This document shows positions 44,189 through 45,138 of a DNA stretch of 48,685 nucleotides, one piece after another. The stretch spans positions 1-48,685 of IMG/VR virus record IMGVR_UViG_2541047926_000004, one strand, 5' to 3'. A model generated the notes under the pieces. The model was not told the DNA's origin, did not search any database, and worked only from the letters and a program-made list of their open reading frames with translations. The number at the start of each line of letters is the position of its first letter. The first letter of the stretch is position 1. The position numbers and the translations under genes are program-made. The stretch is from a virus. Lineage: Duplodnaviria; Heunggongvirae; Uroviricota; Caudoviricetes.

Positions 44189-44962
44189 TCAAAAATTAGG
44201 TGAGTAACGGACCGGGGACATAGCTCCTTTTTTTCTTAATTCATCTGGTATTTTTTTTCCAAGATAAAGATTTGCTATTTCAGGTGGGGCTTCTCGACCT
44301 TCAAAACCATAGCGAGAACTTTGTGTTGCCTCAAAGTCCGGATCCTCGTCCCAGTATTTCATCGTAGGGAAATTTTCACGTGTTGATTTGAGCCATTTAT
44401 CAGCAATGAAAACCCCTCGAACGATCCCCCTTACAGTAGCAAGAATGACTTCTGCTTGGCTGGCGCGAGAGACATTAATGCGCCAGCTAAATCGAACCGC
44501 ATCATAAAGCTCTGAATCCTTTGCACTTCTGTTAACGGAAATCATTAATGCTTTATGATGAAATGTTATGGTTTCGGGTTGATATGTTGCTATCAACTCT
44601 TTGACATGCGCGGCGCCGAATTCATTGCTGCCAGCACCATTCATGATATTCGTTAACCCAGGGTAGGCATCAATAAGTGCTGCTTCGACTTCGTACGCCG
44701 TCTTTTCATCAGTCATTCCGTGTCGATGGATGACATGGATAACCTCAAGTCCTGCTAACCTTATTTCTCTAATTTGCTTTAGCTTGTTGCTCAGTAACTC
44801 GTCATCATCAGTCGCTGCCACTTCACCGCGCATATGGGCAAATACGCGGTTACCTTTGCCTTTCCCTACATAGAAGGTGCTTCCGTCCCTCGGATCAATC
44901 AATCGGTATACATACCAGCCAAGGTGTTCAATTACTCCAGAAGGAAACTCAGTAATATCCAT
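44189..44962 (-). CDS. GIY-YIG nuclease-domain protein with uncharacterised C-terminal domain
   Basis: [27 protein letters not shown] then [15 protein letters not shown] match the GIY-YIG core; C-terminal ~150 aa unrecognised; ATG at 44962 (track ORF from TTG 45013). Confidence 0.6.
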
Positions 44963-45138
44963 TTTGCAATATCTATGAATTATTTGTGAGACGTATATTA
45001 ATGAACATTGCAAGGGCTCACAACCAGTAGTGTTGAGAAAACCATCGGGGAAATGAGGCTAACTCTTTGAATTTACATAGTACAAAAAAGATACTTTTCC
45101 TCATAATGTGAATTAATTTTATGTTTCGTTTGATGATT

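Follow-up and report, generated by a model that had tools for sequence, protein, structure and literature searches.

The nuclease gene beside the pin invertase of a thrW-integrated lambdoid prophage very probably encodes the type IV restriction enzyme CMoRE

The 48,685-nucleotide (nt) viral stretch IMGVR_UViG_2541047926_000004 (positions 1 to 48,685; hereafter the window, meaning this whole length of DNA) carries near its right end a minus-strand nuclease gene that converges on a pin serine invertase, in the position that the restriction gene mcrA holds in the e14 prophage of Escherichia coli K-12. An original prediction, made from the letters of the window alone, read the gene as a restriction-like or modification-dependent nuclease that had yet to be characterised. 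By comparison with known proteins, the gene is an intact copy of CMoRE, also called PD-T4-3, a single-protein type IV restriction endonuclease whose gene, structure and mechanism have already been described; with these published and an identical protein in RefSeq, it is not a new discovery. The gene and its parts are as follows.

44189–44962, minus strand: predicted coding sequence (CDS) of the type IV restriction endonuclease CMoRE (PD-T4-3), 257 amino acids (aa) plus stop codon; from the open reading frame (ORF), PADLOC and PDB 9U75
44963–45013, minus strand: in-frame extension from a TTG codon, outside the protein; from RefSeq CDS lengths, homologue N-termini and published numbering
44591–44962, minus strand: N-terminal GIYxY-YIG nuclease domain, residues 1–124; from Pfam PF22945 and residues Y17, Y19, Y31, R39, E93, V92 and L96
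44192–44590, minus strand: C-terminal modification-sensing domain, residues 125–257, about 133 aa, including Y127
44798–44809, minus strand: acidic codons D52, D53, D54 and E55 of the autoinhibitory loop; read directly from the sequence
44963–45138, minus strand: region upstream of CMoRE, a putative promoter region; from sequence comparison

Identity and start of the gene

Profile searches and comparison with solved structures agree on the identity of the protein. The PADLOC profile PD-T4-3 (PDLC04031) matches with E = 2.7e-140, residues 18–273 of the long ORF aligning to profile positions 1–255 of 256, and the Pfam family LEM-3_GIY-YIG (PF22945) matches with 54 bits against a 27-bit cut-off (E = 2.4e-14). 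The protein is identical to the crystallised CMoRE of E. coli O157:H7 (PDB 9U75; E = 3.7e-172) at 253 of 257 positions (98.4%), the four substitutions being A51T, D55E, K169Q and H197N, and is 85.2% identical to the APEC O1 enzyme (PDB 9U7U; E = 1.1e-150). A public copy, WP_000355484.1 (P0001 in our set, in a cluster of 1,045 sequences), is 100% identical and bears the RefSeq product name ‘LEM-3-like GIY-YIG domain-containing protein’. The general Pfam GIY-YIG model reached 13.7 bits, under its cut-off, and was the only other Pfam family reported for the whole protein at E ≤ 1; membership in the T5orf172/MUG113 families, profiles that the original prediction had proposed to search, was accordingly rejected. 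No NCBIfam family model matched the protein.

The original prediction had correctly recognised a minus-strand GIY-YIG gene and its motifs, and had placed it at 44189–45013. An ORF does span those positions, 274 aa counted from a TTG codon at 45013, but the true start is almost certainly the ATG at 44962, judging from three kinds of comparison: RefSeq annotates a 774-nt CDS in every relative inspected; 29 homologue N-termini align at the methionine of this ATG or a few residues away, with two homologues bearing longer N-terminal extensions; and the residue numbers used in the literature (Y17, Y19, Y31 and Y127) are compatible only with this start.

Counted from the ATG, YVYRL occupies residues 17–21 and H43 follows, with further core stretches at residues 30–40 and 91–105. 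The core had been called canonical; it does belong to the GIY-YIG type but is the GIYxY-YIG variant, with an extra tyrosine (Y19), read here as WY17VY19RL and FY31VGKG. The C-terminal domain had likewise been noticed, at about 150 aa rather than the 133 or so that we assign to it. All residues named in the structural study of CMoRE (PMC12923530) are kept, and the functional residues Y17, Y19, Y31, R39, R80, V92, E93, L96 and Y127 are all in place. In an alignment of 30 homologues reaching down to 55% identity, Y17, Y19, Y31, R39, E93 and L96 are invariant and V92 is at least 90% conserved; V92 and L96, both present in the window protein, correspond to the tetramer-interface residues that CMoRE requires for its function. 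By the pattern of the GIY-YIG family, R39 and E93 would form the catalytic Arg/Glu pair. The same alignment shows N197 to be invariant, Q169 to be the consensus residue, E55 to occur in most close enterobacterial relatives and position 51 to be variable, so that three of the four differences from 9U75 match the majority of the family, with T51 at a variable position.

Published properties and proposed function

PD-T4-3 came to light in a functional selection (Vassallo et al. 2022, PMC9519451, an attribution that we take from reference 9 of Liu et al., as the main text of the earlier paper does not use that name), and was renamed CMoRE when its structure and biochemistry were solved (Liu et al. 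2026, PMC12923530; structures 9U75 and 9U8D from O157:H7, 9U7U and 9U7Z from APEC O1). In E. coli it protects about 10^5-fold against phages T2, T4 and T6 by direct, non-abortive restriction (PMC12923530). The enzyme is a tetramer that binds and cuts DNA containing 5-hydroxymethylcytosine (5hmC) or glucosyl-5hmC (5ghmC) and leaves cytosine and 5-methylcytosine (5mC) DNA alone, cleaving at CN11/N9G with 2-nt 3′ overhangs (PMC12923530). Its C-terminal domain binds 5hm-dCTP with the ligand at the domain edge and not in a pocket, and an acidic loop between helices α2 and α3 lies over the nuclease; the role of this loop is known from the 4A mutant, in which replacement of its four acidic residues by alanine led to cutting of ordinary DNA and to toxicity (PMC12923530). 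The acidic run reads DDDE in both the window protein and the APEC O1 enzyme and DDDD in O157.

Carried over to the window allele, this mechanism would begin with a tetramer whose C-terminal domain binds DNA bearing 5hmC or glucosyl-5hmC. The GIYxY-YIG domain would then cut at a fixed distance between two modified cytosines, while the DDDE loop over the active site would keep the enzyme off ordinary and 5mC DNA, the outcome being direct restriction of T-even phages. What the comparisons show directly for the window protein is its identity, its full set of named residues, the fold of its sensor domain and its place in the genome. The mechanism is established for the CMoRE family, and from its near-identity to the O157:H7 enzyme we infer with high confidence that the window allele works in the same way.

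Several other type IV systems invite comparison. Enzymes of the PvuRts1I/AbaSI family likewise place their cut at a set spacing from a pair of modified cytosines, in the DNA between them, with short 3′ overhangs, and GmrSD-type (DUF262) enzymes target modified T-even phage DNA, the latter with an unrelated domain set and a far larger protein (629 aa) than CMoRE. PvuRts1I recognises 5hmC and 5ghmC, as CMoRE does (PMC12923530). The O157:H7 and APEC O1 enzymes share with the window protein the length of 257 aa, the GIYxY-YIG nuclease, the acidic loop and the C-terminal sensor. The O157-type allele also has the same neighbours, pin and an AraC-family gene; its strain, however, retains a decayed remnant of about 10 kb, whereas the window holds a full-length lambdoid prophage at thrW.

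The pin cassette and the mcrA position

The interval that contains CMoRE is bounded by the pin cassette on one side and by a displaced piece of the serU locus on the other.

41577–43515, strand not applicable: invertible tail-fibre segment, with inverted repeats (crossover sites) at 41577–41599 and 43493–43515
43574–44128, plus strand: pin serine invertase, 184 aa, 96% identical to e14 PinE
44128–44169, strand not applicable: hairpin within the 60 nt that separate pin from CMoRE, two convergent genes, ΔG −26 kcal/mol, z = −5.05, with 0 of 200 shuffled sequences folding as well
45139–45481, plus strand: fossil right attachment site (attR), comprising the 3′ 65 nt of the serU tRNA-Ser(CGA) gene (45139–45203) and about 278 nt of chromosomal DNA from downstream of serU; from alignment to K-12

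The crossover repeats are 23 nt long and 87% complementary, and the segment between them encodes alternative tail-fibre C-termini and two tail-fibre assembly genes (Pfam Caudo_TAP and Gp53-like_C); the repeat sequence of the corresponding e14 P segment is quoted in PMC12529663. In K-12 the gene order is stfP-tfaP, tfaE-stfE, pinE, mcrA and the e14 end, and the original prediction was sound in recognising an e14-like arrangement with another nuclease in the mcrA slot. At the nucleotide level, similarity to e14 breaks off at 44129, a single base past the pin stop codon, and we therefore place the start of the replaced interval there. From that point the interval holds the hairpin, CMoRE and a 176-nt upstream region, and it ends at 45139.

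McrA (EcoKMcrA) resembles CMoRE in being a single-protein type IV enzyme without a methyltransferase, encoded immediately after the pinE stop codon at the attachment-site (att)-proximal end of its prophage, where it is the last gene before att. The two differ in that McrA is an HNH nuclease of unrelated sequence, annotated by RefSeq as 5-methylcytosine-specific, whereas CMoRE leaves 5mC DNA uncut, and in orientation, mcrA running the same way as pin and CMoRE running towards it. That no methyltransferase adjoins the gene, as the original prediction had stated, holds for the window: the sole one in the element is a Dam-type enzyme some 40 kb off (listed below).

The hairpin begins where e14 homology ends and is flanked by A-rich and T-rich runs; it may plausibly end transcription of both pin and CMoRE, as a bidirectional terminator. 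It was found by folding only, the terminator scan having made no call at 44128–44169.

Beyond the CMoRE upstream region, the 343-bp fossil aligns to the serU locus at about 97–99% identity among the matches listed, and some match occurs in 5,405 of the 5,426 complete E. coli genomes searched. It is accompanied by an AraC-family gene (45778–46530) and an IS3-family fragment (46572–46799), and the same trio of serU fossil, AraC-family gene and IS3-family fragment also ends a lambdoid prophage at the bio locus. An Rfam search of 44000–48685 gave only matches far below their gathering scores; among these, a tRNA-Sec-like match at 45123–45192 is the serU fragment, and CssrB and plastid matches were dismissed as chance. 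The pin–CMoRE module thus once ended a serU-integrated prophage, a piece of the chromosomal flank having been carried along, and, since the replaced interval ends at the fossil serU junction, CMoRE was the last gene of that ancestral serU-integrating module. The arrangement suggests that an old aberrant excision brought host DNA into the phage arm.

Expression and alternative readings

The 176 nt upstream of the CMoRE ATG are identical to those in E. coli AR_452, and the 85 nt nearest the gene show a single difference from the O157-type allele of strain 9000. A possible promoter (TTGTGA-17-TAATAT) may lie in this region. We consider it very probable that the gene encodes the CMoRE type IV restriction enzyme, carried as prophage cargo in an mcrA-like position, although some observations count against this reading. 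A consensus scan called no strong sigma-70 promoter or Shine–Dalgarno sequence upstream of the ATG, and neither the sigma-70 consensus scan, at its threshold, nor the terminator consensus scan gave a site on the minus strand, on which CMoRE lies. Two of the substitutions, T51 and E55, fall within or beside the autoinhibitory loop. The prophage, moreover, carries an insertion sequence (IS) at 27619–28983 and is possibly defective, which has no bearing on the expression of a cargo gene.

Some of these points would favour a gene that is intact yet silent or impaired in its host strain, through weak expression or through the loop substitutions. Precedents exist, as the APEC O1 allele defends much less from its own promoter. 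The clinical isolate NILS69 has just two defence systems that proved active, and the CMoRE gene is one of them; for one phage, restriction was seen only with plasmid-borne expression of the gene in K-12, an effect that the authors of that work suggest is due to overexpression. Deletion of the gene from NILS69 did, on the other hand, raise the plating efficiency of T-even phages able to adsorb. An O157:H7 allele, moreover, is fully active from its native promoter (PMC12923530), and the window shares its upstream region with other E. coli, near-identically so for the 85 nt in common with the O157-type allele. The substitutions match consensus residues of the family, and the CDS is 100% identical in some other genomes, with 330 records at 99% identity or more, a pattern consistent with purifying selection. 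With the promoter region conserved, the substitutions consensus-like and identical copies numerous, we regard a silent or impaired allele as very unlikely. More improbable still is a free-standing GIY-YIG homing endonuclease or its remnant, spreading through a cognate empty site and without a role in defence; such a remnant was one of the outcomes that the original prediction had named as overturning it. The GIY-YIG fold does occur in homing enzymes of the I-TevI type, and full-length homologues in jumbo phages are annotated as ‘putative homing nuclease’ or ‘G-I-Y Y-I-G endonuclease’. Pfam, however, finds no homing-type DNA-binding module, whether in the whole protein at E ≤ 1 or, for the C-terminal half, at E ≤ 10; the gene occupies a variable cargo position where prophages end, beside other restriction systems, and not in or between conserved genes; and the protein that is 98.4% identical to it is a proven modification-dependent defence nuclease without strict sequence specificity. 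A homing origin is not supported.

A further question concerns the range of targets of CMoRE, which might extend beyond 5hmC and 5ghmC to modifications such as the Mu-type carbamoylmethyl-adenine or arabinosyl-hmC, so that the enzyme would also act on temperate competitors of its prophage. A Capnocytophaga homologue, 48% identical and itself a modification-dependent nuclease, cleaved Mu DNA when present at high concentration, and its induction gave protection against the phage. The E. coli enzyme, for its part, shows very mild activity on the arabinosyl-hmC phages Bas46 and Bas47 (PMC12923530). Against this, among the phage DNAs tested with the O157 enzyme those of T-even phages alone were degraded, 5mC and unmodified DNA being neither bound nor cut (PMC12923530), and the window holds nothing that bears on target range. 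We judge the wider range unlikely for the allele described here.

The prophage at thrW

The prophage that carries CMoRE as cargo close to one end is lambdoid, spans 45.6 kb and occupies thrW; its landmarks are listed below.

1399–1445, plus strand: left attachment site (attL) core, the 3′ part of intact thrW; 47-nt exact direct repeat
47020–47066, plus strand: attR core, a displaced 3′ fragment of thrW that ends the 45.6-kb insertion; 47-nt exact repeat
1459–2622, minus strand: tyrosine integrase, adjoining thrW
3756–4313, minus strand: Dam-type N6-adenine orphan methyltransferase in the early region; Pfam PF05869, 2.3e-56
27619–28983: IS of 1,365 bp in the structural-gene region; its terminal inverted repeats are 36 nt long, and its transposase, of the DDE_Tnp_1 (IS4-family) type, has 372 aa

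The window opens with proA, followed by the thrW tRNA-Thr(CGU) gene at 1369–1444 (ARAGORN), and the exact direct repeat of the thrW 3′ end brackets the insertion. Homology to the O6:H16 locus halts exactly at 47066, and in strain 14EC047, where the site is empty, thrW runs straight into what lies to the right of that position in the window; together with the thrW-adjacent integrase, these observations set the limits of the prophage. Its lambdoid gene set includes a cI-like repressor, replication protein O, RecT, YqaJ, a gpA terminase, a lambda-family portal, a lambda tape-measure protein and gpJ. CMoRE is not the very last gene of the present prophage, as the AraC-family gene and the IS3-family fragment precede attR at thrW. 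The IS, which presumably resembles IS186, lies in the structural region, and the prophage may be defective for that reason. We rejected the Dam-type methyltransferase as a partner of CMoRE, given that it lies 40 kb off and belongs to the N6-adenine type, and that CMoRE is hmC-dependent.

Three further features of the element and its flank were observed in passing. Two minus-strand ORFs beside the cI-like repressor (6993–8625), at the position of lambda rexAB, comprise a HipA-like kinase (7861–8625; Pfam HipA_2, 4.7e-07, and a weak match to PADLOC PDC-M66A) and a 293-aa protein that matched no family; they are possibly a second cargo or defence pair. Four copies of the 22-nt direct repeat TTACCCGAATCAGGTAAGAAAA lie at 10785–10901 within the replication protein O gene and resemble iterons at the origin of a lambdoid replicon. 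Just beyond attR, in the region 47530–48396 and 48407–48673, the Iet defence system is represented by its AAA ATPase, IetA (PADLOC, 9.4e-70). The 14EC047 copy of IetA is 328 aa long, and after it come a hypothetical gene, IS1 and an S8 peptidase, the last of these probably the Iet partner; as the IetA of the window is shortened to 288 aa and adjoins an IS1 fragment, the Iet system appears to be disrupted here.

Relatives of the sensor domain

The CMoRE sensor domain is said to have no structural relatives (PMC12923530). We considered as PUA-like candidates VcaM4I (EVE-HNH), ASCH, the THYN1 EVE domain with 5mC DNA, YTH and archaeal McrB N-terminal domains. In a Foldseek search, YTH, VcaM4I, ASCH and McrB-N ranked next at marginal values (E 0.03–0.4, template modelling (TM) scores 0.35–0.5), and neither a family profile run against PDB sequences nor Pfam on the C-terminal half at E ≤ 10 produced a link to EVE, YTH or ASCH. 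CMoRE thus differs from the VcaM4I and McrB N-terminal readers in that no relation was detected at the sequence level and the TM-scores were only 0.35–0.5; because that link is missing, the proposal draws on marginal structural scores, and a divergent PUA-like fold is possible but unproven.

An exhaustive search with the sensor domain alone returned 969 representatives, some of them without the GIY-YIG half. One (P0230) is a McrB homologue (AAA_5; E = 1e-62 to the McrB GTPase of T. gammatolerans) whose N-terminal domain is the sensor (E = 4e-20 to 9U75). The sensor is also found in proteins of 598–720 aa (P0145, P0171, P0198, P0218, P0227, P0232 and P0139), the rest of which had no Pfam or PADLOC match; in several of 630–720 aa this remainder amounts to some 500 aa, and for P0145 and P0232 it had no match among PDB sequences either.

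Full-length PD-T4-3 homologues with 38–45% identity occur in virulent jumbo phages (Serratia, Pseudomonas OBP, Klebsiella N1M2, Pectobacterium and Pantoea), where they might act against co-infecting phages whose DNA is modified. The homologue of Serratia phage Moabite (2501–3262 of its locus) keeps WYVY, FYVGKG and the R and E residues, and has TKDASN in place of the acidic autoinhibitory loop.

Distribution and the slot past pin

The CMoRE gene is present in 942 of the 5,426 complete E. coli genomes (17%). The block of pin, CMoRE and its upstream region occurs in 543 of them and the block of pinE, mcrA and the e14 end in 329, the best matches listed for the latter being K-12 laboratory strains. 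Among ten sampled contigs with the exact Pin allele of the window, all ten have CMoRE 60 nt downstream, with a Dcm-type methyltransferase and an EcoRII-like enzyme after it, and nine are e14-like prophages. CMoRE behaves as a single-gene system, with pin and an AraC-family regulator as its neighbours here and a downstream neighbour that varies by locus (AraC, the Dcm and EcoRII pair, or DinI). Copies 100% identical to the window CMoRE are also found on circular E. coli records of 30–64 kb filed as plasmids; a prediction of non-mobilizable applies to 138 of the 181 plasmid records with a match. Such records may be excised prophages or phage-plasmids.

Other occurrences of the slot hold different cargo. 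At ssrA in ZJ3920, a DUF262 protein (a full-length PADLOC type IV match) lies beside an APEC-type CMoRE and a pin remnant; Avs2 adjoins a second pinE elsewhere; and at an ssrA locus without pin, CMoRE directly follows a tail-fibre assembly gene, next to a type II restriction–modification pair. That prophages hold defence genes at fixed hotspots is an established idea, and recombinases next to defence genes have also been reported; in the literature on prophage defence hotspots that we consulted, we found no name for the pin-to-prophage-end slot itself. The stretch beyond pin or the tail-fibre genes, where prophages end, seems to be a swap slot for varied defence cargo.

Discussion

The reasoning that a pin-adjacent nuclease without a methyltransferase should be a type IV enzyme was sound and pointed to the right class, as the PADLOC match and the identity to 9U75 bear out; what did not hold was the view of the gene as uncharacterised, because it corresponds to PD-T4-3 (Vassallo et al. 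2022) or CMoRE (Liu et al. 2026) and differs from the crystallised protein at 4 of 257 residues. RefSeq annotation still lags, giving only ‘LEM-3-like GIY-YIG domain-containing protein’ for a gene carried by 17% of complete E. coli genomes. The locus also portrays a travelling cassette, in which pin and CMoRE move their fossil serU junction into prophages that now reside at thrW and the bio locus. We tentatively advance, as quite possible though short of probable, a broader picture in which the sensor is a very divergent PUA-like (EVE/YTH/ASCH-type) reader of modified bases, exchanged among nucleases, some McrB GTPases, as their N-terminal domain, and the proteins of 630–720 aa, which have no other recognisable domain, and in which the slot from pin to att swaps type IV enzymes and other defences. 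On this view, McrA, CMoRE, GmrSD-type enzymes and other defences would be traded for one another between pin and att in both e14-like and lambdoid prophages.
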